Shown piece by piece: positions 943-53,052 of a DNA stretch of 64,000 bases. Origin of the DNA: a virus. Taxonomy: Duplodnaviria > Caudoviricetes. A program made the position numbers and the translations under genes. The DNA is taken from positions 2,235-66,234 of IMG/VR virus record IMGVR_UViG_3300042356_000309. The stretch is one strand, 5' to 3'. Numbering within the stretch: the stretch's first letter is position 1; each line of letters begins with the position of its first letter. The notes beneath the pieces are model-generated. The model saw only the letters and a list, made by a program, of their open reading frames with translations. It did not search any database and was not told the origin of the DNA.

Positions 943-1031
943 CAATAGTTCTTAAAATATTTTTTGTATGTTTCGTATCTTTGTTTATAATTGAGAAGTT
1001 CATTAGATTTATAGAAAGACACGGATATTAA
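939..1031 (+). CDS. 30-aa single-TM peptide, homolog of 63764-63856
   Basis: MTIVLKIFFVCFVSLFIIEKFIRFIERHGY versus MTIILKIIFVCFVSLFLIEKFIKFIEKHGY; changes are mostly synonymous or conservative. Confidence 0.7.
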   Translation: MTIVLKIFFVCFVSLFIIEKFIRFIERHGY

Positions 1032-1041
1032 AACTAATTAT

Positions 1042-1168
1042 TATGTACCAAGCAGTAATAATACCTTACGGAGTACCCGAAGAGTGGGTACTAAATGTTT
1101 TGTTCGGGAACACAGACGAGGAGCGATTAATGGAGATAGCATCTCAGCTCCTCGAACTTGGTGTTAGG
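1042..1168 (+). repeat. 127-bp exact direct repeat of the window end (63874-64000)
   Basis: Base-by-base identity from TATGTACCAAGC to GGTGTTAGG; mismatch immediately upstream. Confidence 0.95.
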
Positions 1169-1246
1169 TCGTTCACTATAACGCACTACTCACCAATCAG
1201 AGATACAGGTGTAATGATAGCAATTGAAGACATCTGTCTGAACTGA
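1043..1246 (+). CDS. hypothetical protein (67 aa)
   Basis: ORF track; start repeated at 63875. Confidence 0.65.
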   Translation: MYQAVIIPYGVPEEWVLNVLFGNTDEERLMEIASQLLELGVRSFTITHYSPIRDTGVMIAIEDICLN

Positions 1247-1270
1247 TTCTGTGCTTCACACTCATCTTCT

Positions 1271-1517
1271 GTGTCAAGATTCACTATTTTGTGACGCAAA
1301 ATGACGGAAAAATGACGCAATTTTTTGGGCTTAAATCCTTTATTATCAATACTTTATCTCTTTTTAGTGCTGAGATGTTACTATACTCAGAAAAAAAATA
1401 AAAAAATATATATAGAGAGAAGTAAAGAAGTATTATCTTAGCCGAAAAAAAATATTTATTTTTTGACGCTCGTGTCGTCACAGCGTCACTAAACGTAGTT
1501 AACTAATTAATAATCAA
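1271..1517. repeat. AT-rich non-coding element; degenerate inverted copy at 58288-58521 (candidate origin or recombination site)
   Basis: Colinear reverse-complement blocks of 11/11, 22/24 and 17/18 nt; TGACG repeats at 1291-1320; IHF-like TATCAATACTTTA near 1344-1356. Confidence 0.75.
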
Positions 1518-1556
1518 CAAGATAGGTGCTGTCACTTATCGTCATACTTTAAACAT

Positions 1557-1787
1557 ATGTCAACACCAATGAGAGAACTGATGCTACATATAGATATGTG
1601 GCTCGATGCAGGATTAAGTCTTGAGTCGTTCAAGACACACTACATGCAGGTATACTACGAGAAGGAACGGGCCACCATTATAGGTGCTCACTACGATGCG
1701 AGTATGGAGGCAGGGTTTGAACACAGCGCAGAGGACTGGGCGAACGAGTACTTCGAGATTAAGTTTGGAGACTTAAAAAATAAATAA
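1557..1787 (+). CDS. hypothetical protein, related to the two following ORFs
   Basis: ORF track; EKE-x-II...YY/YF-x-x-x-F pattern. Confidence 0.65.
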   Translation: MSTPMRELMLHIDMWLDAGLSLESFKTHYMQVYYEKERATIIGAHYDASMEAGFEHSAEDWANEYFEIKFGDLKNK

Positions 1788-1789
1788 AT

Positions 1790-1948
1790 ATGGAATTAAC
1801 ACCTGTTGAGTGGTTAGAAGAATTAATTGGTAAGAAGCATATGGATACTTTTTTAAGTAACTCAATTGATAAAGCCAAGGAAAAAGAAAAAGAATATTTA
1901 GAAAAACTTAAAGATTTCGACACATGGAAAGAATGGAAAAACAGTTGA
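1790..1948 (+). CDS. hypothetical protein (52 aa, TxVEWL...AKEKEKE type)
   Basis: Hand translation MELTPVEWLEELIG...DKAKEKEKEY. Confidence 0.65.
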   Translation: MELTPVEWLEELIGKKHMDTFLSNSIDKAKEKEKEYLEKLKDFDTWKEWKNS

Positions 1949-2151
1949 CAGCCGTAGAATGGTTGGTTGAAGAATTACAAATATGTGCAACTAAACAAGA
2001 AATGGATATTATTGACCAAGCCAAAGCAATGGAGAAGGAGCAGATAATTGAAAGTTATTGTGTAGGGTGTGCAGAGATAATAAAAGATAATAGTATATTC
2101 CCAAGAGAAACAAGTGAAAAATACTACAACGAAACCTTTAAATCAGAATAA
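1924..2151 (+). CDS. hypothetical protein (TAVEWL...AKAMEKEQII type)
   Basis: ORF track; paralog of 1790-1948; true start may be 1933. Confidence 0.7.
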   Translation: MERMEKQLTAVEWLVEELQICATKQEMDIIDQAKAMEKEQIIESYCVGCAEIIKDNSIFPRETSEKYYNETFKSE

Positions 2152-2152
2152 G

Positions 2153-2296
2153 ATGACAGACGAAGAATTTTGTGAATTATATAGTTCATACTACGGAGAA
2201 AAGGTAGATAAAGTAGGTCAAGTTGTACAAGAAGTACTAACTGGTGAAGAACTAAAAGAAATAATAGAATTTTTTATTAAACAATCTAAAACATAA
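2153..2296 (+). CDS. hypothetical protein
   Basis: ORF track 2114-2296; ATG at 2153 directly after the upstream stop. Confidence 0.55.
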   Translation: MTDEEFCELYSSYYGEKVDKVGQVVQEVLTGEELKEIIEFFIKQSKT

Positions 2297-2300
2297 TAAT

Positions 2301-2525
2301 ATGGCAAAGATAAGACTAGAGTACGACTCCAACGAAGATAGAGAAGAGATGGAGTCAGCGATCAACGGATGGAAATGGAAGATGGTTGTATGGGACTTAG
2401 ACCAACACTTGAGGTCTGAGCTGAAGTACAACGATAAAATAACTGGAGACGTGTATCTGTCACTAGAAAAGCTAAGAGACAAGCTACACGAATTTAAGAA
2501 TGAACACGGACTAATACTAGACTGA
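2301..2525 (+). CDS. conserved phage hypothetical protein
   Basis: ORF track; G-x-KW...WDLDQxLR...KY pattern. Confidence 0.7.
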   Translation: MAKIRLEYDSNEDREEMESAINGWKWKMVVWDLDQHLRSELKYNDKITGDVYLSLEKLRDKLHEFKNEHGLILD

Positions 2526-2606
2526 TATGAAGAATGAAGGAGATTTTATGTGGCTCGTGGTACTAGTTATCGGAGCAGCCATGATGTTGTTTGTAGCCTA
2601 TATGCC

Positions 2607-2852
2607 ATGACAGAGAAGGAGATAAAGATGCTGGGATTCGAGAAGAATTACGTATCAAAAGAAGAGAGTGGAAGTAACGCCTACCACTACTACACGCTTG
2701 ACATTGCGAATGGGTTGTCGTTCATATCAAGTTCAAGCGATGAGGGAGACAAATGGAGCATTAGGTTCTTCAACACTGAGCCAGAGATAGTTATAAATGA
2801 TTTTGCTAACGCTCAAAAACTAATCAATGAAATTTGTAGATATAAAACTTGA
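2607..2852 (+). CDS. hypothetical protein
   Basis: ORF track 2550-2852; ATG at 2607 (MTEKEIKMLGF) is the likelier start. Confidence 0.65.
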   Translation: MTEKEIKMLGFEKNYVSKEESGSNAYHYYTLDIANGLSFISSSSDEGDKWSIRFFNTEPEIVINDFANAQKLINEICRYKT

Positions 2853-3093
2853 GGAGTTCAGACCTATAATGATGGTCTATATAGGGACTGATTTAATAAT
2901 GCTACGTGACTGGGTAAACGATGAGACTGAGTACATACCAAACGTTAGTGGAGACATGCTCAATGACACTGCCTTGTACATGAATACAATAGGTATAACT
3001 GTCAATGGTTACTCATCGTTGAACAGGGAGAATATGTTAATTTATACTAAAAACTTTGATATTAGTATAAAGAATAATACATTTGAGAAATAG
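2827..3093 (+). CDS. hypothetical protein
   Basis: ORF track. Confidence 0.55.
   Translation: MKFVDIKLEEFRPIMMVYIGTDLIMLRDWVNDETEYIPNVSGDMLNDTALYMNTIGITVNGYSSLNRENMLIYTKNFDISIKNNTFEK
3078..3085 (+). promoter_or_regulatory. Bacteroidetes-type -7 promoter element (TACATTTG)
   Basis: Matches TAnnTTTG 13 nt upstream of the tRNA-like element. Confidence 0.6.
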
Positions 3094-3098
3094 TAAAT

Positions 3099-3213
3099 AG
3101 TCAGATGGCGTAATGAGGCATGGTAGCCGAGTCCAGAAGTCCGTTGATGCCAGACACTTGTGGTGGTCATGGAGACGTATGGTTGCTTTAGGGTTCGAGT
3201 CCCCATCTGACTA
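3099..3213 (+). ncRNA. tRNA-like RNA (115 nt) with no assignable anticodon arm
   Basis: Perfect acceptor stem AGTCAGA/TCTGACT, T-loop GGGTTCGAGTCCC and D-like TGGCGTAA...GGTAGCC; middle is oversized and non-canonical. Confidence 0.6.
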
Positions 3214-3251
3214 CACATGTTTCGTGGTGGTTACATGTTTGGTTAAGTAAG

Positions 3252-3281
3252 TCTGGAGGGGTGGTTCCCTCCAGATTTTTT
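3252..3281 (+). terminator. intrinsic terminator
   Basis: TCTGGAGGG-loop-CCCTCCAGA followed by T6. Confidence 0.85.
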
Positions 3282-3302
3282 GTCTAATTAAAATTAATTG
3301 AT

Positions 3303-3833
3303 ATGTTATACTACAAAAAGAATTTCAAGTACTACAGAGTAAAGGGTTCTCTGTTGATGATTATAGCAGGAGTAGTTATCTTCCTGCTGTACATGAAAAG
3401 CACAAAGCCAACCAAGGTGGTGAGTGTGAAAGAAAGAGTGGTGGTGCACGACTCTGACGTGTTCACGCCAGAACGTTTGTACAACTCCATCGTGGAGTGC
3501 GGAATAAAGTTTCCAGACATCGTGTACAGGCAGGCACTACTGGAGTCTGGAAGGTTCTCATCTGACATCTTTGTATGTGGCAACAACCTGTTCGGTATGA
3601 AGGTAGCCAAGCAGAGACCTACAACGGCAACAGGAGAGTACAAGGGTCACGCTGAGTACAGGGACTGGAGGGCATCCGTGCAGGACTACGCACTATTCCA
3701 GTCAGCGTTCATGCGTAAGTACAAGACAGAGGAGCAGTACTACAAGGCGTTAGGTAAGTCGTATGCTGAGGATGACAGCTACATTAGGTTATTAAAAAAC
3801 ATGAGCGATACACTGCTCAATAAAAACAAGTAA
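3303..3833 (+). CDS. GH73-type glucosaminidase/muramidase with N-terminal membrane anchor
   Basis: QALLESG, NNLFGMK, SVQDY and YAEDxxY motifs; hydrophobic LLMIIAGVVIFLLY segment. Confidence 0.8.
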   Translation: MLYYKKNFKYYRVKGSLLMIIAGVVIFLLYMKSTKPTKVVSVKERVVVHDSDVFTPERLYNSIVECGIKFPDIVYRQALLESGRFSSDIFVCGNNLFGMKVAKQRPTTATGEYKGHAEYRDWRASVQDYALFQSAFMRKYKTEEQYYKALGKSYAEDDSYIRLLKNMSDTLLNKNK

Positions 3834-6220: not shown

Positions 6221-8608
6221 ATGATTACATACTTTAAGTCATTATCAGAGACTGATAAGCCATACTATATTGATATAAGCAAAGCACTTGAACGCATACG
6301 AATAGGTAAGTCAAAGGACCTATGTGAGAGGATTAGGCAGTATGCAGGACCAGAAAACAAGGCAAAAAGAAACGAGCTGAAGAAGGGTCTTCCAGCAATA
6401 TGTTTCTCTGGTACATTTACCAAGAGGTCCAAGGCTTCAATCGTTGAGCATAGTGGGTTTATTGCCATCGATTTCGATGGGTTTGATGACGAGTGGGTTA
6501 TGCTGGACTTCAGACACTTTCTGACAAGGGACAAGTACTCGTATGCCGTATTCCTATCACCATCTGGTGATGGTTTAAAGGTAGTAGTCAGAATACCTAA
6601 AGATATAGATAACCACTTGAACTACTTCCTGTCACTGAAGAAGTACTACGACATGCCACAGTTCGATACATCGACAAAGGACATAAGTCGTGTGTGCTTC
6701 GAGTCGTATGACCCAGACATATATGTCAACGAGAACAGCGAGGTATTCACTGAGATAACCACCGAGGAGTATAAGATATTTGAGAAGAGTACGTCAAGGA
6801 GTACCATTAAGTTAGACAATGCAAACGAGATAGTACGAAGACTACTAGTGTGGTGGGAACGAGACTTCGGTATGGTGCAGGGTCAGAAGAATAATAATCT
6901 ATTCATACTTGCGTCAGCACTAAACGAGTTCGGTATCAGTGAGCATGAGGCTAGAGAGGTGTTGCTCAGCTATGACGAGGGTGATAAGGATAAGGAGATA
7001 ATCAATATTCTACGCAGTGCGTATAAAAACACCTCAGCACATGGCACTAAGTTCTATGAGGACAATGCGAAGGTTGACGCTATCAAGACTATGGCCAAGC
7101 AGGGCGTACCAACAGACGAGTTGGTTAGTATGAATAACCTACTGTCAGCTGACGTTGTTCAGTCCATAGCGTCAGAGGTAGATGCCAACGACCCGACAGT
7201 GTTCTGGTCCAAGAGCAGTAAGGGTTCTGTCACGCACATCAATCACCTGTACAAGGAGTACCTAGAGTTCATGGGTTACGGTAAGTATCACGTTGAAGGA
7301 GGTAATGCGTTCGTGTTTGTCAAGGTACGCAACAACATTATATCTGACGCATACGACACAACTATCAAGGACGCAGTTCTTAATGAGTACCTGTACAACT
7401 TGGATGACAAGAGTATATACAACTACTTCGCAGACAAGAGCAAGCTATTCAAGGAGGACCACCTGTCATTCCTTAATACCATTAGACCTAATATAATTAA
7501 GGACGACAAGGATACAGCGTACCTGTACTATAGGAACTGTGCTGTCAAGGTTACTCTCGACAGTGTCGATATAATTGACTACTCAGACATAGATGGGTAC
7601 ATATGGGAGAAACAAATGATCGACAGAGACTTTGTTGTCTGTGACTACTCAGACAGCGTGTACAAGAAGTTTATAAGTAATATTGGGGGAGGGGAGACCG
7701 ATAGGATAAGGTCTATAGAGTCAACGGCAGGATACCTGATGCACAGCTACAAGCCACCTAGTTACGCACCAGCAGTCATCATTAATGACGAGGTGATATC
7801 AGACAATCCAGAGGGTGGTACTGGTAAGGGTATCTTTGTCAGCTCTATATCTCACCTAAAGAAGACCGTGATTATCGATGGTAAGGCGTTCACGTTTAAC
7901 AAGTCATTCCCATACCAGAGGGTATCAGCGGATACTCAGTTACTGGTGTTTGATGACGTTAGCAGACACTTCGACTTCGAGAAGCTGTTCTCCATCATTA
8001 CTGAGGGAATAACTCTTGAGAAGAAGAATAAGGACGAGATACATATACCGTTCGAGAGGTCACCAAAGATCGTAATAACCACTAACTACGCAATCAAGGG
8101 GGCAGGTAACTCGTTCGAAAGAAGGAAGTGGGAACTTGAGTTCGCACAGCACTACAGCAAGAACTTCACTCCAGAGAACGAGTTTGGCCACCAGTTGTTT
8201 ACAGGGTGGGATGCACACGAGTGGTCTAAGTTTGACAACTACATGATTGCTAACCTACAGATGTACCTCAAGAAGGGTCTAATCAAGTCACAGTTCAAGA
8301 ACCTCAGAGAGAGGAAGTTTGTTGCTGAGACATCGATGGACTTCTATGACTGGTGCAAGGACAGGTACAACAACATGACGAAGGTTGGCTCTGAAACGTT
8401 AGGGCAGGAGATGTATCGTTCGTTCACAGAACAGAACCCAGACTACGGACCTAGAGGTAAGATGTCGCTTCCGCTTACTAAGTTCTATAAGTGGCTAGAC
8501 TCTTGGGGAGAGTATATGTTTAACGTCAGACCTATAACGTATAGGAGTGCACTAGGTAAGATGGTTAAGTTCGAGATGAAGTATGACGAACAATCTAAAA
8601 TGTTTTAA
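6221..8608 (+). CDS. primase-helicase: BT4734/VirE-N primase-like domain plus C-terminal P-loop helicase
   Basis: KxxLPAICFSG, IDFD, SPSGDGLK and DISRVCFESYDP motifs; Walker A GGTGKG, Walker B FDD, ITTN. Confidence 0.85.
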   Translation: MITYFKSLSETDKPYYIDISKALERIRIGKSKDLCERIRQYAGPENKAKRNELKKGLPAICFSGTFTKRSKASIVEHSGFIAIDFDGFDDEWVMLDFRHFLTRDKYSYAVFLSPSGDGLKVVVRIPKDIDNHLNYFLSLKKYYDMPQFDTSTKDISRVCFESYDPDIYVNENSEVFTEITTEEYKIFEKSTSRSTIKLDNANEIVRRLLVWWERDFGMVQGQKNNNLFILASALNEFGISEHEAREVLLSYDEGDKDKEIINILRSAYKNTSAHGTKFYEDNAKVDAIKTMAKQGVPTDELVSMNNLLSADVVQSIASEVDANDPTVFWSKSSKGSVTHINHLYKEYLEFMGYGKYHVEGGNAFVFVKVRNNIISDAYDTTIKDAVLNEYLYNLDDKSIYNYFADKSKLFKEDHLSFLNTIRPNIIKDDKDTAYLYYRNCAVKVTLDSVDIIDYSDIDGYIWEKQMIDRDFVVCDYSDSVYKKFISNIGGGETDRIRSIESTAGYLMHSYKPPSYAPAVIINDEVISDNPEGGTGKGIFVSSISHLKKTVIIDGKAFTFNKSFPYQRVSADTQLLVFDDVSRHFDFEKLFSIITEGITLEKKNKDEIHIPFERSPKIVITTNYAIKGAGNSFERRKWELEFAQHYSKNFTPENEFGHQLFTGWDAHEWSKFDNYMIANLQMYLKKGLIKSQFKNLRERKFVAETSMDFYDWCKDRYNNMTKVGSETLGQEMYRSFTEQNPDYGPRGKMSLPLTKFYKWLDSWGEYMFNVRPITYRSALGKMVKFEMKYDEQSKMF

Positions 8609-13292: not shown

Positions 13293-13318
13293 GAAAGGGC
13301 CTAATGGCCCTTTTTTTA
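13293..13318. terminator. bidirectional terminator between the convergent genome arms
   Basis: AAAGGGCC-TAAT-GGCCCTTTTTTT between the two stop codons. Confidence 0.85.
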
Positions 13319-16300
13319 TTTGTTTTTGAAGTTTTCATTATAATATATCAGCGCAGTTTTAGATATTCTAGAGTTTGTCTGTTTCATAATAGTATTTAAT
13401 TCATCTAGTTCTTCGTCATCTAAACTTGCCCCATATCTCTCGTACATATAAAGAGCTTGCAGTTTAGGTTTATTTTCGAATACTATGTTTAACAGTCTTC
13501 TATCTAAACTCATATTATTTATGTAGTTATTATATTTATTATAATACGAATCTAATTCTGATTTAGTAACTGGTTTAAACCTTTCATCAATCATATCTAA
13601 AAGTTCTCCAACATTTAATTCTTTTCCAGAGTCATATATATCCTTTATATCATCATAAGTTTTTGTAGTATTATAATACTCCTCATCATTTTCTTCTATT
13701 AACATTTCAGCTATCCTGTCTTGTTCTTTTTTATCAAGAAGATTTTTATTAGTAGATCTAACTAATTTTCTGCTTGTATTTTTGATAAATTCATCCGTTG
13801 CGATAGAAAAAGCTTCTCCCATATCAGTCTTATCATCAAACATTCCATTAGCAACAGCATACAGTATAGATAATGTAGGATTTGTAGATTCAGATGTAAT
13901 TATTTTTTCAACCATCGCTTGAGTTCTTATAGGAGACATTCCAAATATAGGTGCTATAGTTTTAAATAAGCTATTTACATTATCATCATTTATACCTTCA
14001 TACTCTGGACTTATTACCCTATTTTCCCATCCCCTTTGTTGTTTAAATATTTTCTCTCCTCTAAATGTATCATAGTTTAATCCGTAAGCTATTCCAGCAG
14101 CAACCAATGGGTTTTTACCTAAAACGTTTTCTGGATAGAATGGAACTGATGATTTAACTGTATTCCAAAAAATATCATTATTTACATCGTAATCTACACC
14201 CCTAGAACTAAAAAAGAATTTTGTAATCATCTGTTCTGCAAATGTAGTAATTACTGAAAGCCCAGGAAGTTTTTTAATTCTTTTATATTTATACTCTCCG
14301 TTCTCATCTTTTTCTCCAGTAAATATTATATGATAGTTAGCTTTTTCGTATTCTGGTATAGAGTTTATAGCATCCATCATTTTTTTGTTACAATCATCTT
14401 CATCTTCTGCTTCAGCACAAGCACGTTGTAGTAATACAGATATAGAGTATGCAGCTATTCCAGCAGACATTATAGATCCTTGAATCATATTGCTTGCAAA
14501 TCCGTAAGGATTTTTTGTAGCGTATTCCCTAGTTCTTCTAAGGCCTTGCATACCTGCATTAAAGTATGGCATAACAGCATCTATATTTTTTGCATATTCT
14601 CCACCTTGATTAAAGTCAATAACCTCCCTAGCTTCTCTAACAGCATCATGCATTATATCTTCAAGGTCTTGTCCTTGAGGATCTAATCCATTATTTTCTT
14701 TTTTATATTTTTTAATTAGATCACTCTTTGTTTTTTCATATACAGAAAGTCTAAACGCCTCTTCTGATTTTTCACCTAAATATGATACAACTTTTGCATA
14801 GGTAACCAGAGTCTTTCTAGGTAATGAAAGAACTGGTAAGCCAAATACTTCTATCGTATATTCTTTTGATAGAAGCTGTCTAATTCCATCGGAAGACATG
14901 TAGTCCATTGCTCCACCATGCTCTAGGTATTCTCTTTTAATATTCTTATACTTTATTCCAAAAGAAGCTCTTAAGAAATTCTTTACAAAATCAAATGCAA
15001 GATGAGGAGCTCCATAAAATTTTCCAATAATTGGCATTTTACCATATACATCTGATAAAAATAAAATGTTAGAAAAGTCAGCAGGAACGTTACCAAGTAT
15101 AAAGAATGGGTTTCCAGATGTAGCAAAGAATCTTAAAAGAGATCCTCCAGATAATTTACCTATTTGTTTTAGTGTATCTGGAACATTATTTAAATCAAGT
15201 ATTTGATCTGCATATTTATTCTTTACGATCATCTTTCTTTTTACACCTTTCTTATAAAATATTACTTCTTTATATCCAAGAGGTATTTTATTCTTATCGT
15301 ATTTGTATATTAATGATCCTGTCTTAGTTTTTCCTATAACTGGATTATCTAAAAATATTTCAGATAACGCTTGTTTTTCTATATCAGTAGCATTTTCTAT
15401 ACTATCATTTATAGCATTAAGAAGTTTATTCTCAAAGTTTTTTCTTTCAGATGCATTTATTGCCATCATCATTAGCCACCTTGTGTCAGAGGCAAATGCA
15501 TTTTCGTTTTCATCACCAAGTCTTTTTATATCATCACTCTTTATACCTAGTGTTTTTGACATTGTGTCTATCTCAGTTGATGTAAACTGATCCTCACCTA
15601 TTATATATTTAAGAGTTTTAATTGGAGAGTACTCAATGTCTTTTAATGTATTGTATGTCTCTTCATTTATTCTGCCAGATTTAAAAGCATTTCTTAAATT
15701 TTCTTCATAAACCTTGAAGTATTCATTTGTTCTATTTTCAAAATCTGCATACTTCTTATCTCCAATAGCATTTTTTATTTCTTGCAAATCTGCCTGAGCT
15801 TCAGCTGTAGAGTATCCATCCATACCCTTATACGGCTTCATTCCTCTTTCAGCTCTATTTTTATTAATAGCTATAATACGTTTTGCGTATATCATGGCGT
15901 TAAGAAGATCCATATCTTTAACGCTAAGCAATAAATTTCTATTTAACTTTCTTCCATATATCTTTTTCTGAGCCTCTTTAAATCTTTCGTTTGCCCATCC
16001 AGAAGCACCAGCTTTATTTACTAATAAATTTAAAGCTCTCTTTGAGTATACACCAGCTATATTTCTTAAAGCTCTTTTTGCATCAGCTTGTCTATCTTCA
16101 AACTTTTGTATATACTCTTCAGCTAAATCTTTAGCCTTGGTCTTTTTTGTTCTTTCTTTTATATATTTTTTATTTTCATCTAATATATCTAAAGCCTTAA
16201 CGTTCTTTAGGCCCTTCTGTCTTCTGGCCTTAGTTATACTTGTAGCGTTTCTTTTAGTGTCTATTGATCCAGACATTCTTTCTCCCTTAAATGTAGCTAC

Positions 16301-19300
16301 AGTTCCATCCATTGAAGTTATAGTAGCCTTACCTCCGTACACTATAATCTCATCTCCCACCTTGTAAACGTCAGCCTCTTGTTCCTTGAATGGAATGTTC
16401 TCTTCAATAGGCGTTAGCTCCTTAACTGTCTGAGCTCTCAACTGGTCACCCTTCCACTTAGATACAAGCATATCGTACCCATTGTCAGCAGCCACCTTAC
16501 TGATCCATGCAGCCTGGTAGTTAGGACTGAATGCCTGTCCAGGACGTACTTCTAAGAACTGTCTTTTAGCTTCGTCATAGAAGTTTTCTTGGTCTTCCTG
16601 TAGGTAGTATACCTTGTCTTTAGGTACAACAACAGTATGAAGTACTGGACCAACTCCAGCCTCCTTCTGACCCTCCTGTGTATAGAACTGAGCAACACCT
16701 CCAACAGAGCTTAGTGCAGCTGCCTCGTCTCTACCAGTTATCATGTTATCTCCAGATCTAGGCTTGATGGTTTCTCTCTTCTGATTAGAGTAGTGATGGA
16801 ATATATAGTTTCCGTTACCGTCTTCAGTAAGTTTGTCAGCTACTTCCTTTTGAAGAGCCTTCTGTCTTCTTGGAGCAGGTCCTTGATCTTGTATTTTAGA
16901 TGTGTTTACTCTAAGTCCTCTAACAGAAACACCAGATGTTGGAAATATCTTATTCTCTCTTTCCTTAGATGCTACAATATCATTTGTCTCAAAGTCCTCA
17001 AATACTTCTGACCAATTAAACCTATCTTTTAGTATATGAAGAGTTACTTTATTATTAGCTTTTTCAGATTGAATTGCTTTTGGATATGATTCATGCTTAT
17101 CTGAATTAACATCTTTAACCTTACCTCTTAATTCTAACACAGCATAAACTTGTCCACCTTTATCCCTTTTAACTCCTTCTTTTAGCATAGGTTCAGTAAA
17201 CATCTCAGATAATGCTTGAGTCATGTTTGCTGCGGATATAGATAGCTTTCCAGTTTTTGTAATACCCTTAAAGTATTTATTTTGAATGCCTTGAGAAAAT
17301 AATTTTCCAAATTGTTCAACAGATTTAGGGTTTGATCTTATAACATTAGCAGCTTCTTTTATTAATTCTTCAACAAAAGTTTTTCTATCCTCAAATGATG
17401 TAATATCTGGATTCAATAATTCCTTTATTCTTGATGCTAAAATATCAACAGAATCTGATTTATTTAATTTAAATTGAGTTCCTAATCCAACAAGTTTTAT
17501 TCTATATTGTTTATTTCCTTTTTTATCAAGAACTGGTTTACCATCTTTCTTTATTAATGTCTTTTTTTCTCTTGTAACTTTTGCAGCATTATTAAGCATT
17601 GTTTTTAACTGAGATGGAGTTATGGAAAAATTCTTATCAAATGCCTTAGATAAAAAGAAATCAAGAACTGAGTTAGACATCGTAGTACTTGATAATAATT
17701 TATCATAAGGAGCAGTTGTAAGACCCATATAAATAACACCACCATTTTGTTCAAATACCTTGTTTAGATCTTTAGCCATTTTATTGGCCGTTTCATCTGT
17801 ACTTGCCCAAAAATAACCATCTTCATGAAATTTAATAGGATAGAATACACCTCCTTTACCTTCTACTAATATTTCTCCATCTTTATAAATCATTCCTGAG
17901 AAAGCTGCGTCAGGTTGATGAAGGAACATATATTCACCATTAAAATCTTTTATGGATTTATTTCTAGTTATGTATCCATCATCTTCAAGTTTCTTAAACT
18001 TATTTCCATTTTTATCAAATACAAATGTAAGTTTAGATACAAAGTCAGAAAAATTAGACTGGAATCTTTTATTTGCATTTGATATTTCAGTACTAGATTC
18101 AATTTTCTTTACATCTTTTTGTTTTATAGTCTTACCCTTAGCAGTCTTTCTAGCAATAGTAGTAAGTACATCGTAAACCTCATTCCTATTGAATGGATTT
18201 AATCCAAATGATTTAGCTATTCTGTCTATCCATCTCTTGATTACATCCTTAACAGATTCTGGAGCTTCCATATAATACTCAGACAACATACCAACTAACT
18301 CGGATACCTTTTCCTCGTTCTGTATATTCTCCTCGTATTGAGATGCAAAATCATCTAAGTATTTTTTTAACTTTGGATTACTATCTATCTTCTTAGATAC
18401 AGCCTCAATCATTTTTCTTGTAGTCAAAGCTGCATTTGCTTCAGTCTTAACTGCGTTAATAAGTACTGCATGGAATACCTCATGGGCTACAGTTCTTGCG
18501 TTAGCCTGTTCTAAGTTAATGTGTATCTCTCCAGTTGCAGGATCAAAATAACCTCCAGACTCAGTATCTCCAGCAATAGCAGCAAATGAATCCCGTGTAT
18601 CGTGAACAATGAACTTTGTGTTAGGTAGTATTCTAGAAACTGCCTTAGCTGCGTTAGCAACTATCTTAGCCATTCTAGGCTTAGATATCTGAGCAGCACG
18701 ATTTTCAATCTCTACGTCAGTACCAGATATAACTGTACCTGTTGATGATTGTGAAGGAGCAGTTTGCTCAAACACGTTTGGCAACCTTCCCTCTTTTAAC
18801 GCTTTTGCAATTTCCTTGAACTGAGCTCCACTAAACTGCATAGGATTTTTACCTGTACCTCCAGTCTTTACGTTCTGAAAAGACCCAAGATCAAATAGTG
18901 ATTCTTGATCTGCTAGTCTACCAAACTCAATGGCCTGCTCTCTAGATGACTCTGGAGCCACAACGTTTAGATCGATAGACATCTCGTTAGAGTTAGGGAA
19001 CTTATAGATACCTACCTTAACAGTTTCGTTGTCACCAATCTTATCTGCGTGCTGCTCAACGAAGTCTGCAATCATTTCTGGAGTAGCTTCCTCAACAGTT
19101 GTATTAATACTAACTACTGGTACAACTAATCCTACACCGTCATAAACTGTTCCATCAAGATTAAACGTTGCCCCATCCTCTGCTTCTGGAGTTACTGCCT
19201 TTACTCTTTCTAGTTCTTGAGAAGAGTTGGTAGCAATTGTAGGTTTGTCTATAACAACTTCTTCTGCAACAGGTTGTTGCACAACTGTTTCCTCCAAAGC

Positions 19301-22300
19301 AGCTAGTTCTGCATCATATTTAGCATTTACAGCTTCTTCAATGGTTTGGTCATTGTTAACTTGATAAGTTTCTTTAAGACCATCTTCTGTATAAGTATTA
19401 AGTTCTTCTTGTCTTCTTGTTTCTATATCAGCTTTCTGAGCCTCTACATCTACTACTTGCGTCTCCTGGAGCCCACCGCCTGCGATAGTGCTATCGCCAA
19501 GATTTGTTTCTGGCTGCGTGGCTTGCCCGACTGTCCCTTCTCCTTGCCCGACTTGAGGTTGTCCTTCATTAGTTCCCTCACGTTGTACGACACCGCCTTC
19601 TGCTGTGCCTTCTTGCTGCTGTTCTGTGCTTTTCTTAATGGCATTTTTAGATATTTTTTTTAGTTCATCATTAATCTGCTCTATCCTTTCTTTCTGGCCA
19701 GCAACTAGAGCCTCATCCTTACCAGCTATCTCTTCTTCTAGTTCTTGTTTTTCTAATAATAAGCTATATGACTCTATCTTATCAGAAGTAGATAATTTAT
19801 TTGGAATAGAATCCAATAACTCTCCAGTTTTTTTAACAAATTTTATCTTTGCATCAGCTTCATCTTTAGATATTTCTCCCTTTTGAAGCAGTATACCTAC
19901 ACTTGTTATATATGCATCCCTATTTCTTACATCAGATGTATAATCATAAAATTTCTTAAACTCTTTATTTGCAGATGCAGATGCCATCCTGTTTGTTACT
20001 ATGCTTGCACCATTAGACATCGTACCAAATATAGCACCACCTGCCATTCCTAAAACTACATTTTCAGCTAATGATGATATATACTCTTTTCTACCTTCAT
20101 CAGTACTAAGATCTGGAGCATCTTTAAAATAATCTAGATTATATGCAGCATTTATAGCTGCCTTCATTCCTCCTTCAAATATAAATTGAGTTCCTTCTGT
20201 ACCTCCTTCTGCAACTGCACCAACAGTAACATCAAACGCTCCAGCCGCAATAGCCTTTCCTATGTTCTTAGATATCTCCCTTTTAATAGTTTCTTCAGTA
20301 GCATCTTTTGGTAGGCCAGCTAATGATCTGCCTATTATAGATGTTATAACTCTTGAGTTAACTGGGGCCTTCATTTGTTCAAATCCATACTTCTCCAGCT
20401 TACCCATGACAAGTCCATAAGCAAAACCGTATGCATTTTTTTCTAATATTCCCATGTTGTCAAACTCTTCTGCTGTCATTTGCTCCCTCATGTCTGCATA
20501 TGCCCCAAGTATAAATCCAACTGATCCTCCAAGAGATGACCCCAAAGTTCCTCCAAGAGACCCTATAGCTTTTTCCCATATACTCCTATCTTCAGAAGAC
20601 ATCCATTCTGGAGTTGTTTCTTCCATAAATCCAAGTGATGACATAGTTTCTACACCAAGCTTTTTAGAATCTACTATAAATCTTGAAATGTCTCCATATA
20701 CCTTATTGTTTATTTCTTCTGGAGTCATTCCTTTTTCCAACATGTTATTATATAATGTTGGTTCTACAAAATTTTTAGCATCTAATCCTAACTTAACTAG
20801 ATCCGTCTCTACATACATAATAGCTTCAGCTATTCCCATAGATGCATCCATAAAATTAGATATAAATGAACCTACAATACCACCACTTTGTTCTCTTTCA
20901 AGAGAATTTAAACCTGCTGTTTTTTCTAGGCCTATAGATAGTTTATCTAAGTTTGCAGAAGATTGCTCGTAGTTGTATTTATCCTGCTCTACCTCTATTG
21001 TCTTTTTGTCTATTTCTTCTTGAGCTTTTTGAAAATCAAACGGATAATTTTTTATTACTTCAAGATTTTCATTTGCTAGATTTAAATATGTTTTATCTTT
21101 AGTTTTATCGTATTCTTTTTGATAATAATCAGCCTCTGCCTTTTTAGATTTTAAGAAGTCCTCCTCAAATCTTACTCTGCTTATGAGTCCACCTAAATCA
21201 TTGTTTGATTTTTGATATATTTTATATGCTGAATTAGATTGTTCTTCTACACTTTTAGCAATATTCTGCCACATGTCACCTCCTAGAGATACATTCTTAT
21301 CCATCATATTTTTATATACTGATGGGTTCCTGTATATCATATCGATCATTGCTCTCTCATACTCATCTTTATTTACAGCATTGATGTCTCCGTTATTAGA
21401 GTTAAACTTTCTCTCTAATATCCTAAAGTCTTTCTCTTTATTCCAAGTATCTATTAACCAGTCAGAAATTTCTTGAGGCGTGCTGTCTAGAGAAAATTTA
21501 TTTTGTCCAGGAGAGGTTATATTATCTCCATCTATAAAGAATCCATACTTATTCCAAAGAGATGAGTACTCTCCAGAATTTATTGATTTCTTTACATCAT
21601 CATAAAAATCAATATCTAGATTAGAAAAGTATTTTTCATCATCTTTATCTACTGTAAAGTATCTCTTTTTAGTTTCTCCGTATACCTCTTTCTTTTTTTC
21701 TATTTCTTTTTCAGCTTCACTCTGAAGGTAATTCCACTCTCCCCAATAATTTTGATTATAATAAAGATATGCCTTACCCATATCTATCTCTTCACCCTCT
21801 AAGCTATACATCTTTGATCCGTCTGGACTTTTATATGTATTCTCCTGTATCCATTCTGGGAATGATGGGAATTTTTTATAAGATTTTCCAGAAATAAATT
21901 CATGAAATTTATCAACAGCAGATTTGTTTGATTCATTTATTTCTTTCTGTATATCTATCTTTGTTTTTAAGTTCTCAGTAAATCCTTTTGTACGTCTCTC
22001 TATTTCTTCAAACTTACTTCTTGCTGGATCAATAACAGCTTCAGTGAACCACTCTATTAATTTTTTTCTTGGTTTTTTAATAGATTTACCATCTAAATAA
22101 ACCGTAGCCTCCTCCATTGTTTCTTTAAACTGACCTGTTTCTGGATCATATAATGACCCAGATGTCATATAGTCTCTAGTTGAGGCATACTCTAGTTCCT
22201 TTCCTACAGGAACCATAGCAGGTATAAGCCCAGACTGTCTTAGTAAGAAGGCTGTTCTTTCAGCGTCATTGGTCAATGAATTATACTCTTGTAGTTGCTG

Positions 22301-22894
22301 AATAGCTTTAGATGATGAGTTTGGATCGTACTCCCCCTTAGCAAATTTTTGAAAATCTACTTGACCTAACTTTGCAGCATTTTGCAAGTCCATAAGCATT
22401 TTTTCTTTGGGACTCATTTCATAGTTGTCCAAAACGCCCATTTGCTTCCTCCACTCTCTATCTGCAATTTGAGAGTTCCAGTCTGTTTCTTGAAGATTAC
22501 CCTTTAGTACTTCATCTTTTTCTATAGCATTTTGTACAGGGTATAGAATATTTTCTTTGTATTCTTGATCTGGACTTTTAGTAGTTGTTGTATCTACGTT
22601 TCTTTGCAAAGACGAGGATACCGAAGGCTCTGGCATCCCCATTTCTGGTGTAGCCAATGAACCACTTGTTGGATCTTCCATTGATGGTGATACCAACTCT
22701 TCTTTTTTTTTTAATGGTGTATACTTTATGTCAAAAGTTTCAAAGTCAGTACTTTCAATACCGTCTCTAGTAAGTACACCGTGTACCTTTTTTCTGTAAA
22801 TAGGGTCATTAAGCTGGTCTTCAAACTCACCTAATGTTTTTGTGTAGTAACCTCCTTCTGATAACTTATTGTATAAATCTTCTACTAACGCCAT
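13316..22894 (-). CDS. giant polyvalent internal virion/ejection protein (3192 aa) with SAMase-like, HExxH metallopeptidase, ART-like and LPD38-like domains
   Basis: Last gene of the ejection-protein cluster; GxFxP...IHIN...HEVFH...EE, HHYS...FYT...GYD and DFNQGG...PYFNAGMQG motifs. Confidence 0.85.
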   Translation of the reverse strand: MALVEDLYNKLSEGGYYTKTLGEFEDQLNDPIYRKKVHGVLTRDGIESTDFETFDIKYTPLKKKEELVSPSMEDPTSGSLATPEMGMPEPSVSSSLQRNVDTTTTKSPDQEYKENILYPVQNAIEKDEVLKGNLQETDWNSQIADREWRKQMGVLDNYEMSPKEKMLMDLQNAAKLGQVDFQKFAKGEYDPNSSSKAIQQLQEYNSLTNDAERTAFLLRQSGLIPAMVPVGKELEYASTRDYMTSGSLYDPETGQFKETMEEATVYLDGKSIKKPRKKLIEWFTEAVIDPARSKFEEIERRTKGFTENLKTKIDIQKEINESNKSAVDKFHEFISGKSYKKFPSFPEWIQENTYKSPDGSKMYSLEGEEIDMGKAYLYYNQNYWGEWNYLQSEAEKEIEKKKEVYGETKKRYFTVDKDDEKYFSNLDIDFYDDVKKSINSGEYSSLWNKYGFFIDGDNITSPGQNKFSLDSTPQEISDWLIDTWNKEKDFRILERKFNSNNGDINAVNKDEYERAMIDMIYRNPSVYKNMMDKNVSLGGDMWQNIAKSVEEQSNSAYKIYQKSNNDLGGLISRVRFEEDFLKSKKAEADYYQKEYDKTKDKTYLNLANENLEVIKNYPFDFQKAQEEIDKKTIEVEQDKYNYEQSSANLDKLSIGLEKTAGLNSLEREQSGGIVGSFISNFMDASMGIAEAIMYVETDLVKLGLDAKNFVEPTLYNNMLEKGMTPEEINNKVYGDISRFIVDSKKLGVETMSSLGFMEETTPEWMSSEDRSIWEKAIGSLGGTLGSSLGGSVGFILGAYADMREQMTAEEFDNMGILEKNAYGFAYGLVMGKLEKYGFEQMKAPVNSRVITSIIGRSLAGLPKDATEETIKREISKNIGKAIAAGAFDVTVGAVAEGGTEGTQFIFEGGMKAAINAAYNLDYFKDAPDLSTDEGRKEYISSLAENVVLGMAGGAIFGTMSNGASIVTNRMASASANKEFKKFYDYTSDVRNRDAYITSVGILLQKGEISKDEADAKIKFVKKTGELLDSIPNKLSTSDKIESYSLLLEKQELEEEIAGKDEALVAGQKERIEQINDELKKISKNAIKKSTEQQQEGTAEGGVVQREGTNEGQPQVGQGEGTVGQATQPETNLGDSTIAGGGLQETQVVDVEAQKADIETRRQEELNTYTEDGLKETYQVNNDQTIEEAVNAKYDAELAALEETVVQQPVAEEVVIDKPTIATNSSQELERVKAVTPEAEDGATFNLDGTVYDGVGLVVPVVSINTTVEEATPEMIADFVEQHADKIGDNETVKVGIYKFPNSNEMSIDLNVVAPESSREQAIEFGRLADQESLFDLGSFQNVKTGGTGKNPMQFSGAQFKEIAKALKEGRLPNVFEQTAPSQSSTGTVISGTDVEIENRAAQISKPRMAKIVANAAKAVSRILPNTKFIVHDTRDSFAAIAGDTESGGYFDPATGEIHINLEQANARTVAHEVFHAVLINAVKTEANAALTTRKMIEAVSKKIDSNPKLKKYLDDFASQYEENIQNEEKVSELVGMLSEYYMEAPESVKDVIKRWIDRIAKSFGLNPFNRNEVYDVLTTIARKTAKGKTIKQKDVKKIESSTEISNANKRFQSNFSDFVSKLTFVFDKNGNKFKKLEDDGYITRNKSIKDFNGEYMFLHQPDAAFSGMIYKDGEILVEGKGGVFYPIKFHEDGYFWASTDETANKMAKDLNKVFEQNGGVIYMGLTTAPYDKLLSSTTMSNSVLDFFLSKAFDKNFSITPSQLKTMLNNAAKVTREKKTLIKKDGKPVLDKKGNKQYRIKLVGLGTQFKLNKSDSVDILASRIKELLNPDITSFEDRKTFVEELIKEAANVIRSNPKSVEQFGKLFSQGIQNKYFKGITKTGKLSISAANMTQALSEMFTEPMLKEGVKRDKGGQVYAVLELRGKVKDVNSDKHESYPKAIQSEKANNKVTLHILKDRFNWSEVFEDFETNDIVASKERENKIFPTSGVSVRGLRVNTSKIQDQGPAPRRQKALQKEVADKLTEDGNGNYIFHHYSNQKRETIKPRSGDNMITGRDEAAALSSVGGVAQFYTQEGQKEAGVGPVLHTVVVPKDKVYYLQEDQENFYDEAKRQFLEVRPGQAFSPNYQAAWISKVAADNGYDMLVSKWKGDQLRAQTVKELTPIEENIPFKEQEADVYKVGDEIIVYGGKATITSMDGTVATFKGERMSGSIDTKRNATSITKARRQKGLKNVKALDILDENKKYIKERTKKTKAKDLAEEYIQKFEDRQADAKRALRNIAGVYSKRALNLLVNKAGASGWANERFKEAQKKIYGRKLNRNLLLSVKDMDLLNAMIYAKRIIAINKNRAERGMKPYKGMDGYSTAEAQADLQEIKNAIGDKKYADFENRTNEYFKVYEENLRNAFKSGRINEETYNTLKDIEYSPIKTLKYIIGEDQFTSTEIDTMSKTLGIKSDDIKRLGDENENAFASDTRWLMMMAINASERKNFENKLLNAINDSIENATDIEKQALSEIFLDNPVIGKTKTGSLIYKYDKNKIPLGYKEVIFYKKGVKRKMIVKNKYADQILDLNNVPDTLKQIGKLSGGSLLRFFATSGNPFFILGNVPADFSNILFLSDVYGKMPIIGKFYGAPHLAFDFVKNFLRASFGIKYKNIKREYLEHGGAMDYMSSDGIRQLLSKEYTIEVFGLPVLSLPRKTLVTYAKVVSYLGEKSEEAFRLSVYEKTKSDLIKKYKKENNGLDPQGQDLEDIMHDAVREAREVIDFNQGGEYAKNIDAVMPYFNAGMQGLRRTREYATKNPYGFASNMIQGSIMSAGIAAYSISVLLQRACAEAEDEDDCNKKMMDAINSIPEYEKANYHIIFTGEKDENGEYKYKRIKKLPGLSVITTFAEQMITKFFFSSRGVDYDVNNDIFWNTVKSSVPFYPENVLGKNPLVAAGIAYGLNYDTFRGEKIFKQQRGWENRVISPEYEGINDDNVNSLFKTIAPIFGMSPIRTQAMVEKIITSESTNPTLSILYAVANGMFDDKTDMGEAFSIATDEFIKNTSRKLVRSTNKNLLDKKEQDRIAEMLIEENDEEYYNTTKTYDDIKDIYDSGKELNVGELLDMIDERFKPVTKSELDSYYNKYNNYINNMSLDRRLLNIVFENKPKLQALYMYERYGASLDDEELDELNTIMKQTNSRISKTALIYYNENFKNK
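19453..19644 (-). CDS. nested out-of-frame small basic protein (MPL-K...KQxxAIALSxA type, DUF6496-like)
   Basis: Resembles a common stand-alone phage gene; A-rich start context AAAAAAATATCTAAAAATG; the host frame is a low-complexity linker here. Confidence 0.7.
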   Translation of the reverse strand: MPLRKAQNSSKKAQQKAVSYNVRELMKDNLKSGKEKGQSGKPRSQKQILAIALSQAVGSRRRK

Positions 22895-25085: not shown

Positions 25086-25496
25086 TTATTGTAATATCTT
25101 AATCATTTCTTGACAATTTTTATCACCAGATAAAAATCCACACTCTACGTACCTGTCAACTAAATGCTTGTTCTTTAGTGACGTATATATGTACTTATAC
25201 CCCTCCTGCTCTACGTATATAGATAGAACGTTTATCAGCATGTTCAGTGCCTCCTTACGGTCTGCCCTGTTCTTGTAGTTAGGGTTTGAAACTATGTACT
25301 CTATCCAAGCTGTCTTGGAGTTTGTGAAGTACACAAACCCAGCACATATATGCTCTCCACCCTTAGACACCATTATACCTCCAGCACCGTTCTGAGGGAG
25401 CATATCCCTGCTAGGTGCAGTCCATCTCCACTGCTCCCACCAACCCTTAAGGATGGTATCGTAGTCATCTTCTTTTAGATATCTAACCTCCATCAT
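25086..25496 (-). CDS. GNAT-fold acetyltransferase-like virion assembly protein
   Basis: R-x-L...D pattern and ICAGFVY, WIEYIVSNP, Y...GF motifs; usual position before the ejection genes. Confidence 0.7.
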   Translation of the reverse strand: MMEVRYLKEDDYDTILKGWWEQWRWTAPSRDMLPQNGAGGIMVSKGGEHICAGFVYFTNSKTAWIEYIVSNPNYKNRADRKEALNMLINVLSIYVEQEGYKYIYTSLKNKHLVDRYVECGFLSGDKNCQEMIKILQ

Positions 25497-26239
25497 GGAT
25501 AACTTTTAAATACTGAAGACTCTATAGAGAATAGCTCAAACTGTGAAGTAGACTTAGGCGTGTTAATTGTAAGCTCTACCTGCATGTAGTACCCCCTAAG
25601 TCCGTAAGACTCAACCATATTGTTTTTAGCTATAAGTATATACATACCGTAAAAAAGAGGAGGCCCAACTAATGACGAAAAACTAATAGTGCTCGATGAA
25701 ACATTAATAGCCTGTCCTAGATAAACTAACTGTCCTAATCCATCAAGTGTATAAACCCTGTCAGTTACAGAAACTTTATTTTCTATTTCATATGAAAAAC
25801 TCATAGAAAGTGATGTAAAGGATGTTAAAGCTCCAACTCCCTGTACTGATAATGAAGCTGTGTCAACAGTATTGTCGTCTGGCCTTCTAATAAATGCGTA
25901 CCACTCACCCTCCTTAGCCTTGAAGTAGCTATCATCAATAATACCTATCTCTAGATCTGTAAGTAAATCAGCGTCCCAAGACTTGTCACTGTCAATAACT
26001 AGCGTCTTAAACATCTTTATCTCCGTAGGACTTTCATTTAATACAGTCTTTATAGAAGATGGATACTGAGTTCCGTAGAAAGTATTTCTAGATACGTTTG
26101 TATCGTGCTTGTATAGATTTCCATCACTCCATGTATAGAAAGTATTATTCATACCAATCATCCAGTCTGGTATGAACGCCCACCTAGAGGTCCATCCGCT
26201 GGACATTGTAGAGTATGTAAGTGTAACAGGAGGATTCAT
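25493..26239 (-). CDS. tail nozzle/stabilization protein, C-terminal-type module
   Basis: TLTYS...GWTS, KxFKTL, KEGEWYAFI, GLRGYY and ELFS motifs. Confidence 0.65.
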   Translation of the reverse strand: MNPPVTLTYSTMSSGWTSRWAFIPDWMIGMNNTFYTWSDGNLYKHDTNVSRNTFYGTQYPSSIKTVLNESPTEIKMFKTLVIDSDKSWDADLLTDLEIGIIDDSYFKAKEGEWYAFIRRPDDNTVDTASLSVQGVGALTSFTSLSMSFSYEIENKVSVTDRVYTLDGLGQLVYLGQAINVSSSTISFSSLVGPPLFYGMYILIAKNNMVESYGLRGYYMQVELTINTPKSTSQFELFSIESSVFKSYP

Positions 26240-52802: not shown

Positions 52803-53052
52803 TTATCCTGTAGTTCTTATCGTTCATCCTGTAGTCGTGACCCTGCACAGAGTCATACGCAACCACGTCACCAGTTTTTATTACTGGGTTACCATCCTCG
52901 TCATACGGTAGATCCTCACTAGCGAGTATTACCTCAGCCTGCTGGTATCTCTGTTTTGCTGTCTCCATTCCAGAAAGTAGGAGCCCTGTACTGGACTCCT
53001 GTCTCTCTAACTCCATAGGTAGTACAACAATGAAACTATTCAACGCTTTCAT
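52771..53052 (-). CDS. groES: co-chaperonin GroES
   Basis: STGLLL mobile loop; GDVVxY and IIxxxDV motifs; adjacent to groEL. Confidence 0.85.
   Translation of the reverse strand: MKALNSFIVVLPMELERQESSTGLLLSGMETAKQRYQQAEVILASEDLPYDEDGNPVIKTGDVVAYDSVQGHDYRMNDKNYRIIMYRDVALIL

Follow-up and report, generated by a model that had tools for sequence, protein, structure and literature searches.

Among Rz/Rz1 relatives, embedded, overlapped and separated gene arrangements have all been found, as described in the accessible text of two reports (PMC6139136, PMC5295617). Most overlaps combine one ancestral frame with one de novo frame, the latter being the overprinted short open reading frame (ORF), according to the available part of a third (PMC8227390). 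The "overlapping, alternate-frame insertion" (OAFI) is an engineered design (Leonard et al., bioRxiv 10.1101/2024.11.07.622342), and the introduction of that preprint, in its accessible portion, names no natural example of such an origin. Here, a 63-codon ORF is described that is located on the same strand as, and one base out of frame within, a giant virion-protein gene of a virus of the Caudoviricetes (Duplodnaviria), and that very probably is a real protein-coding gene. It lies in a stretch of 64,000 nucleotides, referred to as the window, which corresponds to positions 2,235 to 66,234 of the IMG/VR record IMGVR_UViG_3300042356_000309 and covers nearly the whole of this 66-kb record. The features on which the analysis is based are the following:

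19453..19644, minus strand: nested gene with ATG start, 63 codons and TAG stop, coding for a small basic protein of the DUF6496/phrog_2423 type
13316..22894, minus strand: giant host ORF of 3192 codons, the final gene of the late/structural operon
19451..19645, minus strand: host-frame reading of the nested DNA (giant-protein residues 1084-1148), a spacer rich in E, Q, G, T and V
19646..19726, minus strand: conserved host-frame anchor (...AGKD..LV..Q..RI..IN..LK.IS.), directly upstream of the insertion site
19645..19674, minus strand: likely translation initiation region of the nested gene, A-rich, almost without predicted structure and with A at -3

The nested gene and its protein family

The nested ORF is contained entirely within the giant ORF on the same strand. 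The second base of host codon N1084 is the A of the nested ATG, so that the host reading AAT GCC ATT becomes a-ATG-CCA-tt (offset +1 nt). An earlier note on this DNA had pointed out a complete small gene hidden out of frame in the 3192-aa coding sequence (CDS) and a Q/E/G-rich linker in the overlapping host frame; the coordinates, frame, ATG and stop were verified, and the host-frame translation across the nested segment (NAIKKSTEQQQEGTAEGG..., rich in E, Q, G and T) was as quoted. The nested frame is free of stops for 68 codons, which is the longest alternative-frame run in the giant ORF (the runner-up has 52 codons, and the median stop-free run is 7 codons in the +1 frame and 4 codons in the +2 frame). 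The G + C content is 0.56 across the nested ORF vs 0.27-0.43 in the flanks.

Judged by its profile matches and conserved residues, the nested peptide is a member of the DUF6496/phrog_2423 family. The profile search that the earlier note had suggested placed it above the gathering cut-off of the Pfam model DUF6496 (PF20106; 28.5 bits, cut-off 24, E 2e-6), with peptide residues 12-56 aligned to profile positions 4-47 of 58, and a six-frame search of the genome returned the nested ORF as the sole DUF6496 match (27.8 bits). Its own match to phrog_2423 was weak (E 0.0055), and the relative L020 matched this family with an E value of 1.9e-17. A search profile built from the nested peptide and eight relatives retrieved, from a database of 1.84 billion cluster representatives, 190 small proteins at E<=1e-3, 24 of them at <=1e-10 and the best at 5e-23; nearly all of these proteins have 40-90 aa and were aligned from the first residue. 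In an alignment of 62 sequences, R43, Q47 and A50 are invariant and M1, P2, L3, N21, E24, L25, N29 and I51 are at least 90% conserved, and the window peptide retains all of these residues. The architecture of the family, which comprises single-domain proteins of 45-90 aa with an MPL start and N..EL and R...Q..AI motifs, fits as well, and the nearest clusters in the ESM Atlas are viral DUF6496 clusters (scores 0.92-0.93). An AlphaFold2 model calculated with the family alignment is a two-helix hairpin (pLDDT 88.3; helices 11-29 and 45-61), and the net charge counted from the sequence is about +14.

Structure searches against BFVD gave small uncharacterised phage proteins as best matches (E 0.1-0.4), and neither Foldseek nor a sequence profile search against the PDB returned anything significant for the nested peptide, nor did they reveal a solved structure of any family member. 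NCBIfam holds no family for it, the literature search for DUF6496 yielded no paper mentioning the family, and the sources give no informative names. A word-indexed protein search recovered just two near relatives. DNA positions 18800-20300 had no match among annotated phages, and tblastn of the window peptide (E<=1) against the same genomes found none either, for which the low-complexity filter may be the cause; less lysine-rich relatives used as tblastn queries did retrieve annotated phage records. The short relative L020 alone matched 202 such records, among them phages of Acinetobacter, Pseudomonas, Caulobacter, Burkholderia, cyanobacteria and others, in agreement with the earlier statement that stand-alone genes of the MPLKK...AIALS type are common in phages.

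Recurrence, selection and origin of the overlap

A scan of viral contigs with the nested peptide revealed 11 loci, 8 of which carry the gene nested at the identical +1 offset in a long open frame, and in the remaining three (L017, L018 and L020) it is free-standing among small genes. In metagenomes, 157 loci were confirmed, and the best 80 of these comprise 31 nested and 48 free-standing copies, one locus (L158) having been dropped for a stop after five codons. Removal of identical DNA left 34 distinct nested and 49 distinct free-standing ORFs. All 34 nested copies have an intact ATG and stop and a host frame without stops; the overlapping open frame has 893 aa in L143 and at least 981 aa in the other nested loci, where it is mostly limited by the locus ends. 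Across these copies, the identity to the window is 60-97% for the nested peptide, 28-40% for the 250 aa of the giant protein upstream, and 13-58% for the 250 aa downstream. Recurrence at one place in 34 distinct copies is far beyond chance. Locus L015 has a two-codon gap in the nested gene. At window position 19614, one contig of run X5 (depth 3.2 of 24.1) similarly is without 6 nt of the nested gene, and both frames are kept.

The variation among nine nested copies follows the codons of the nested frame. Variable sites at nested codon positions 1/2/3 numbered 22/18/37 of 54 codons, and at host codon positions 1/2/3 they numbered 40/23/19 of 56 codons. The lowest variability is thus that of the host third position, a pattern that cannot result from selection on the host frame at the protein level. 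The dN/dS ratios according to Nei and Gojobori (NG86) were 0.05-0.31 for the nested frame vs 0.95-5.8 for the host frame, and each of the 36 pairs had a lower pN/pS in the nested than in the host frame. Because ordinary dN/dS is biased in overlapping genes, an overlap-aware, OLGenie-style count of changes by their effect in both frames was also used (nested dN/dS = dNN/dNS; host dN/dS = dNN/dSN; with bootstrap confidence intervals, CI); this count was home-made and not the published program. It gave 0.26 (CI 0.15-0.41) for the nested and 1.33 (0.76-2.35) for the host frame with 9 sequences, and 0.32 (0.22-0.45) and 1.69 (1.09-2.72), respectively, with 34 sequences. Nested-frame dS values reach 1-2.7, which is saturation, at dN values of 0.02-0.33, and the conservation therefore reflects long-term selection and not recent transfer. 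Thus, the nested frame is under purifying selection, and the giant frame over the nested DNA evolves like a neutral spacer that needs only freedom from stops. This spacer character is also indicated by the giant-protein homolog L006, which tolerates the loss of the entire segment and contains no nested ORF of either of the two families described here.

The cost of keeping the host frame open is visible in the codon usage of the nested gene. Nested position 3 is host position 1, and a T at this site would create TAA, TAG or TGA before AAR, AGN and GAN codons, which are plentiful in the lysine-rich nested gene. T occurs at 30 of 2094 nested third positions (1.4%) in the nested copies vs 632 of 2782 (22.7%) in the 49 free-standing copies. 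Stops in the frame equivalent to the host frame are absent from all 34 nested copies, whereas the free-standing copies have a median of 4, and only 3 of 49 have none. It is because the nested third positions are almost never T that the giant frame remains stop-free and that the G + C content peaks locally.

A second gene family occupies the same place in related phages. The giant-protein homologs L002-L005 have no DUF6496-type gene, can be aligned with the window through the conserved ...RI.EIN..LK.IS. motif, and carry an ORF of 42-46 codons beginning with MPFKSK in the identical alignment column and at the same +1 offset. The anchor motif is common to giant proteins with either nested family or none (alignment of the window, L001, L002, L004, L005 and L006). 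The MPFKSK ORFs have 42-60 codons across L002, L004, L005, L021-L100 and L101, and examples are located as follows:

L002:3761-3901, L004:3827-3955 and L005:3827-3955: nested ORFs of the MPFKSK family
L101:5327-5455 (Flavobacterium phage elemoE, NC_055854.1): nested MPFKSK ORF, a diverged copy

A scan of viral contigs confirmed 242 MPFKSK loci, and in all of the best 80 that were kept (L021-L100) the gene is nested, in open frames of 762-2703 codons limited by the locus ends. Frame statistics were calculated for 71 distinct sequences from 78 of these loci after two copies starting with MFKS had been dropped. Pairwise differences at nested positions 1/2/3 were 0.149/0.062/0.358, the nested peptides had an amino-acid identity of 0.85, the overlapping host-frame readings one of 0.55 and the preceding 150 host residues one of 0.17, T made up 2% of the nested third positions, and the overlap-aware dN/dS was 0.15 for the nested and 1.62 for the host frame. 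A common origin of the DUF6496-type and MPFKSK nested families was rejected (hhalign probability 0.4%). For the MPFKSK family there is no Pfam model and PHROG matches are weak; tblastn of the L004 peptide (E<=0.01) against annotated phages found no match, possibly due to the low-complexity filter, and a profile search detected 292 small called metagenome proteins at E<=1e-3. A free-standing relative exists in Streptomyces phage FlowerPower, between a "peptidase" gene and the holin gene. Free-standing copies of the two families also occur in unannotated gaps of Prochlorococcus phage MED4-184 (L108:2501-2629) and Synechococcus phage S-CBS2 (L110:3501-3572). One site, at one offset, hence holds a DUF6496-type gene, an unrelated MPFKSK gene, or nothing in sister phages, and behaves like a slot for interchangeable hidden genes.

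As free-standing members of the DUF6496/phrog_2423 family are widespread, the nested frame is the ancestral one, and it is the way in which the giant ORF reads this DNA that is young. The overlap arose when a large frame was extended across a small gene already in place, and not by the birth of a new frame; a de novo overprinted gene is ruled out by the 49 distinct free-standing homologs and the 202 annotated phage records. In a tree of the 83 distinct peptides, 33 of the 34 nested copies fall into one group of 36, and the remaining one stands apart on a long branch. The label "nested" or "free-standing" needs three changes on this tree, and an AU test over 66 columns did not reject a single clade of nested copies (p 0.405). 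Two loci may represent intermediate forms: in L143, an ORF of 893 codons (708-3389) overlaps the small gene (3001-3189) and stops about 200 nt after it, and in the sister locus L135 an upstream ORF (2204-2998) stops just before the ATG of the free-standing small gene (3001 onwards). Both would fit an origin by loss of the upstream stop and read-through.

Taken together, these results bear out the central part of the earlier interpretation and correct another. A hidden gene that carries the constraint in its own frame was supported by the frame-specific dN/dS analysis, and the stops that were looked for in the nested frame of homologs occurred in none of the 34 distinct nested copies. The suggested A-rich start context is real (see below), and a host tripeptide over the hidden ATG, proposed as a marker in the form [N/D]-A-I, was recovered more broadly as [N/D/Y]-A-[T/I/V/A/N/F] in 33 of 33 DUF6496-type and 71 of 73 MPFKSK-type distinct loci. 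The assumption that gene callers miss such genes is exemplified by the Elemovirus record of phage elemoE, in which only the giant "structural protein" CDS is annotated and the nested MPFKSK copy is not, and the generalisation to hidden small basic genes in other giant ORFs extends further than proposed, with an unrelated gene at the same site in sister phages. Strict overprinting, understood as a new frame born in an old gene, did not hold, as the small gene comes from an older free-standing family and it is the giant frame that is unconstrained. The label "ejection protein" for the giant product likewise found no backing: it has no sequence match in Pfam, PHROG or the PDB, and only the label "structural protein" in Elemovirus.

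Start site, expression and possible function

A position weight matrix (PWM) of start contexts was built from 41 gene starts of the window phage. Of the 236 ATGs inside the giant ORF, the nested one scores third highest (6.7 bits), and it exceeds the median of the true starts (5.6 bits). In nine nested copies, the fraction of A at positions -20..-1 is 0.57 vs 0.38 at 1362 other ATGs of the same host ORFs, the minimum free energy of positions -30..+20 is -0.26 vs -5.9 (standard deviation 3.2) kcal/mol at control ATGs, and A is found at -3 in 7 of the 9. The ATG itself is kept in 33 of 33 distinct DUF6496-type and 73 of 73 MPFKSK-type loci. In Bacteroidetes, initiation proceeds without Shine-Dalgarno pairing and is adjusted through weak mRNA structure and through A at position -3, a positive determinant, as the accessible text of PMC6847099 describes. 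Independent initiation at the invariant ATG on the late mRNA would yield the small protein, and the A-rich, unstructured stretch would take the place of a Shine-Dalgarno site, as for the ribosomes of Bacteroidota. The motif TAnnTTTG, which we take to be the -7 promoter consensus of Bacteroidota, is enriched (94 matches vs 66 expected), and the phage host most likely is a member of this phylum. A dedicated promoter for the nested gene was not supported, as the nearest such motif is located about 380 nt upstream; in the absence of a nearby promoter motif, the late polycistronic mRNA is the likely template. The sole RNA run contributed one contig (20253-20417), which lies elsewhere in the giant gene and speaks neither for nor against nested expression.

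Two explanations would do without an independently translated gene. Frameshifting or transcriptional slippage could produce a +1 shift before the ATG and thereby furnish the first ~1080 residues of the giant protein with a basic C-terminal tail. Such shifts are, as general background, frequent among phage late genes, a run of eight A is located 10-17 nt upstream of the window ATG, and the nested frame of the window is open for 5 codons before this ATG. However, an A run of at least 7 occurs in only 3 of 33 DUF6496-type and 3 of 73 MPFKSK-type distinct loci, and in 28 of 33 and 39 of 73 loci, respectively, the nested frame is closed at most 5 codons upstream, down to 0-2 codons. The complete conservation of the ATG also argues against a frameshift product, and MPL is the true N-terminus of free-standing family members; on the counts of A runs, upstream stops and ATGs this explanation was rejected as very improbable. 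Even less credible is that the nested ORF represents an unused captured relic whose conservation stems from recent segment transfer or from constraint at the nucleic-acid level. The segment does form a conserved island between hypervariable flanks in a mosaic giant gene, which could suggest recent recombination, but the large nested-frame dS is found alongside a small dN, the three-base periodicity of variation tracks the nested frame, the ATG is retained and the frame uninterrupted by stops or frameshifts in all 34 nested copies, and the indels (in L015 and in the 6-nt variant) comprise whole codons. The relic was accordingly rejected on the dN/dS values and the counts of intact ORFs.

The function of the nested gene was approached through the gene neighbourhood of its relatives. 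In Acinetobacter phage WCHABP12, the DUF6496-type domain forms the N-terminal part of the head maturation protease, whose gene immediately precedes those of the minor and major head proteins. In cyanophage KBS-S-2A, the small gene directly follows a "head morphogenesis" gene, and in MED4-184 it lies one gene after such a gene, in both cases between the portal and the major head protein. In the PB1-like phage Kula the gene comes after a "putative head protein", in Bcep43 it comes after a virion structural protein, and in the Pseudomonas podophage O4 it closes the structural block, behind two very large proteins and the endolysin; its location among tRNA genes in Caulobacter phage Magneto is uninformative. 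As free-standing relatives directly follow head-morphogenesis genes and the Obolenskvirus domain is fused to the prohead protease, a role in the head or virion is suggested, and the product may tentatively be regarded as a very basic two-helix protein with a late role alongside proteins of the head or the virion interior, such as that of an assembly factor or a factor inside the capsid. In the Obolenskvirus phages, the DUF6496/phrog_2423-type domain comprises the first ~37 residues of the annotated head maturation protease (L102:3001-4338 in WCHABP12), and other Obolenskvirus records have two overlapping "hypothetical proteins" annotated at the position of this fusion.

More speculatively still, the giant genes of a large group of Bacteroidota phages could have a dedicated slot in which small basic genes, once free-standing, have been swallowed and can be exchanged, and these genes could encode obligatory partners of the giant protein. 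The embedded proteins would then act, for example, as cofactors of packaging or ejection, the embedding would lock the pair together while the hypervariable flanks recombine, and the conserved nested gene would serve as a homology anchor for the shuffling of these flanks. If true, the slot would be the natural equivalent of an engineered alternate-frame insertion and, in general, a place in which phage genes stay hidden from annotation.

Several points weigh against these readings. Translation of the nested ORF is something that we infer from sequence, and without a TAnnTTTG motif in the 380 nt upstream of the ATG on the minus strand its expression would have to rely on internal initiation on an mRNA that is translated in another frame. 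The sequence pairs used for the selection analysis are phylogenetically non-independent, and the overlap-aware estimates come from a home-made program. The proposed function is drawn from the gene neighbourhood in 7 hand-picked records of 202, no function-bearing structure, solved or predicted, resembles the model of the nested peptide, and the giant protein has no recognisable domain, so that its partnership with the nested product is conjecture. In addition, the position of the O4 relative right after the endolysin gene and that of the FlowerPower MPFKSK relative beside the holin gene fit a role in lysis equally well.

A lysis factor is the main rival to the head-associated role. The product would be a cationic helical peptide that disrupts the outer membrane when the infection ends, like the "disruptin" gp28 of coliphage phiKT, and many such peptides are expected in spanin-less phages according to the available text of the preprint describing gp28 (bioRxiv 10.1101/515445). 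The nested product is small, highly charged (about +14) and predicted to be helical, and a scan of 20 neighbouring proteins brought to light no spanin or other lysis gene. On the other hand, 4 of the 7 contexts are head-morphogenesis modules, including the in-frame fusion to the prohead protease, the host of FlowerPower is Gram-positive and has no outer membrane, and the window copy is located inside a structural gene and not in a lysis cassette. The accessible part of the same preprint states homologs of gp28 only in one close phage, and there is no family link to the nested peptide. A lysis function appears unlikely, and the tentative assignment to head or internal virion proteins is preferred.

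Genomic setting and comparison with known systems

The giant gene ends a late operon in which terminase, portal and virion structural proteins, as well as an ORF with the C-terminal domain of the crAss muzzle protein (25493-26239, minus strand; E 4.5e-18), are encoded upstream. The protein encoded by it, a large virion protein, had no match in Pfam, PHROG or PDB sequence searches; its nearest cultured relatives are proteins of Flavobacterium podophages of the genus Elemovirus, where the elemoE homolog is annotated as "structural protein". It holds an HExxH motif (...AHEVFHAV...), which might mark a metallopeptidase-like domain, although no family or structure search supported any domain. Just 3' of the nested stop, positions 19291-19452 have a metagenome contig depth of 3-30 times the neighbouring depth in the respective run. 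Many contigs join 19316-19327 to 19399-19420 and thereby omit 75-103 nt, and loose ends often start at 19296 and 19435; this pattern suggests that two conserved anchors of the giant gene flank a short hypervariable stretch here. Elsewhere, the window encodes a 795-aa protein with a BT4734-like N-terminal domain (primase) and DUF5906 among replication genes (6221-8608, plus strand) and a 531-aa protein that matches the PHROG chaperonin GroEL family over its full length (53036-54631, minus strand; E 8e-120). The muzzle domain and the BT4734-like protein with DUF5906 are crAss-like features of the window. The stretch is contained in 20 sequencing runs, mainly of lake and freshwater DNA. No paper on nested genes in these phages was found and a description of the elemo phages was not located; the accessible text of a paper on Baltic Flavobacterium phages (PMC7077304) mentions neither overlapping genes nor mass spectrometry.

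Among double-stranded DNA phages, the nested gene adds a well-supported and widespread example of a gene embedded completely and out of frame in another one, with at least 34 distinct loci for the DUF6496-type family. It ties both DUF6496/phrog_2423 and MPFKSK, two families without assigned function, to late virion genes, and it provides a signature for annotation, namely a giant-ORF spacer with [N/D]-A-[I/V/T] and an A-rich unstructured run, followed by ATG-CC. Since Elemovirus phages can be cultured together with their Flavobacterium host, the proposed expression is directly testable.

Compared with free-standing DUF6496/phrog_2423 proteins, the nested peptide is alike in its HMM score, conserved residues, length and MPL N-terminus. 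The free-standing members differ in being encoded by separate genes or fused in frame to the prohead protease, and in using T-ending codons freely. Disruptin gp28 of phiKT has 56 residues, and its class is defined by fewer than 80 aa, a charge of at least +4 and helicity (accessible text of bioRxiv 10.1101/515445); the nested peptide, with 63 aa, a charge of about +14 and predicted helices, falls within these limits, whereas its location inside a giant structural gene differs from the position in a lysis cassette, between endolysin and holin, that would be expected of a disruptin.

The resemblance to Rz/Rz1 of phage lambda is one of architecture. There, too, a larger gene encloses a small late gene completely; both are on one strand, and the inner one is read in the +1 frame from an internal start of its own (accessible text of PMC6139136). 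The variety of arrangements among Rz/Rz1 relatives is paralleled by the nested, partly overlapped (L143) and separate (L135) forms described here. Rz1, however, is an outer-membrane lipoprotein, whereas the nested peptide has no cysteine, signal sequence or hydrophobic leader; a spanin identity was ruled out by the missing lipobox cysteine and by the outer gene being a virion protein gene. Unlike in Rz/Rz1, this outer gene is a 3192-codon virion gene whose overlapping part is an unconstrained spacer, the inner family is mostly free-standing, and two unrelated inner families use one slot.

With classic overprinting, as in phiX174 and RNA viruses, the locus shares two frames on one stretch of DNA under asymmetric selection. 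In contrast to those cases, the short ORF is the ancestral one here, and the reading of the long ORF is young and unconstrained. The route to the overlap thus reverses the textbook one: the long ORF is prolonged across a small gene that was there before, and this older gene, by avoiding T, recodes its synonymous sites and holds the new frame open. The same architecture, including synonymous recoding of the inner gene to hold the outer frame open, is described for OAFI in the accessible text of the preprint by Leonard et al. Unlike that engineered design, the case presented here is natural, old (with saturated dS) and widespread, and it offers both a natural data set for frame sharing and a precedent for synthetic alternate-frame insertion.

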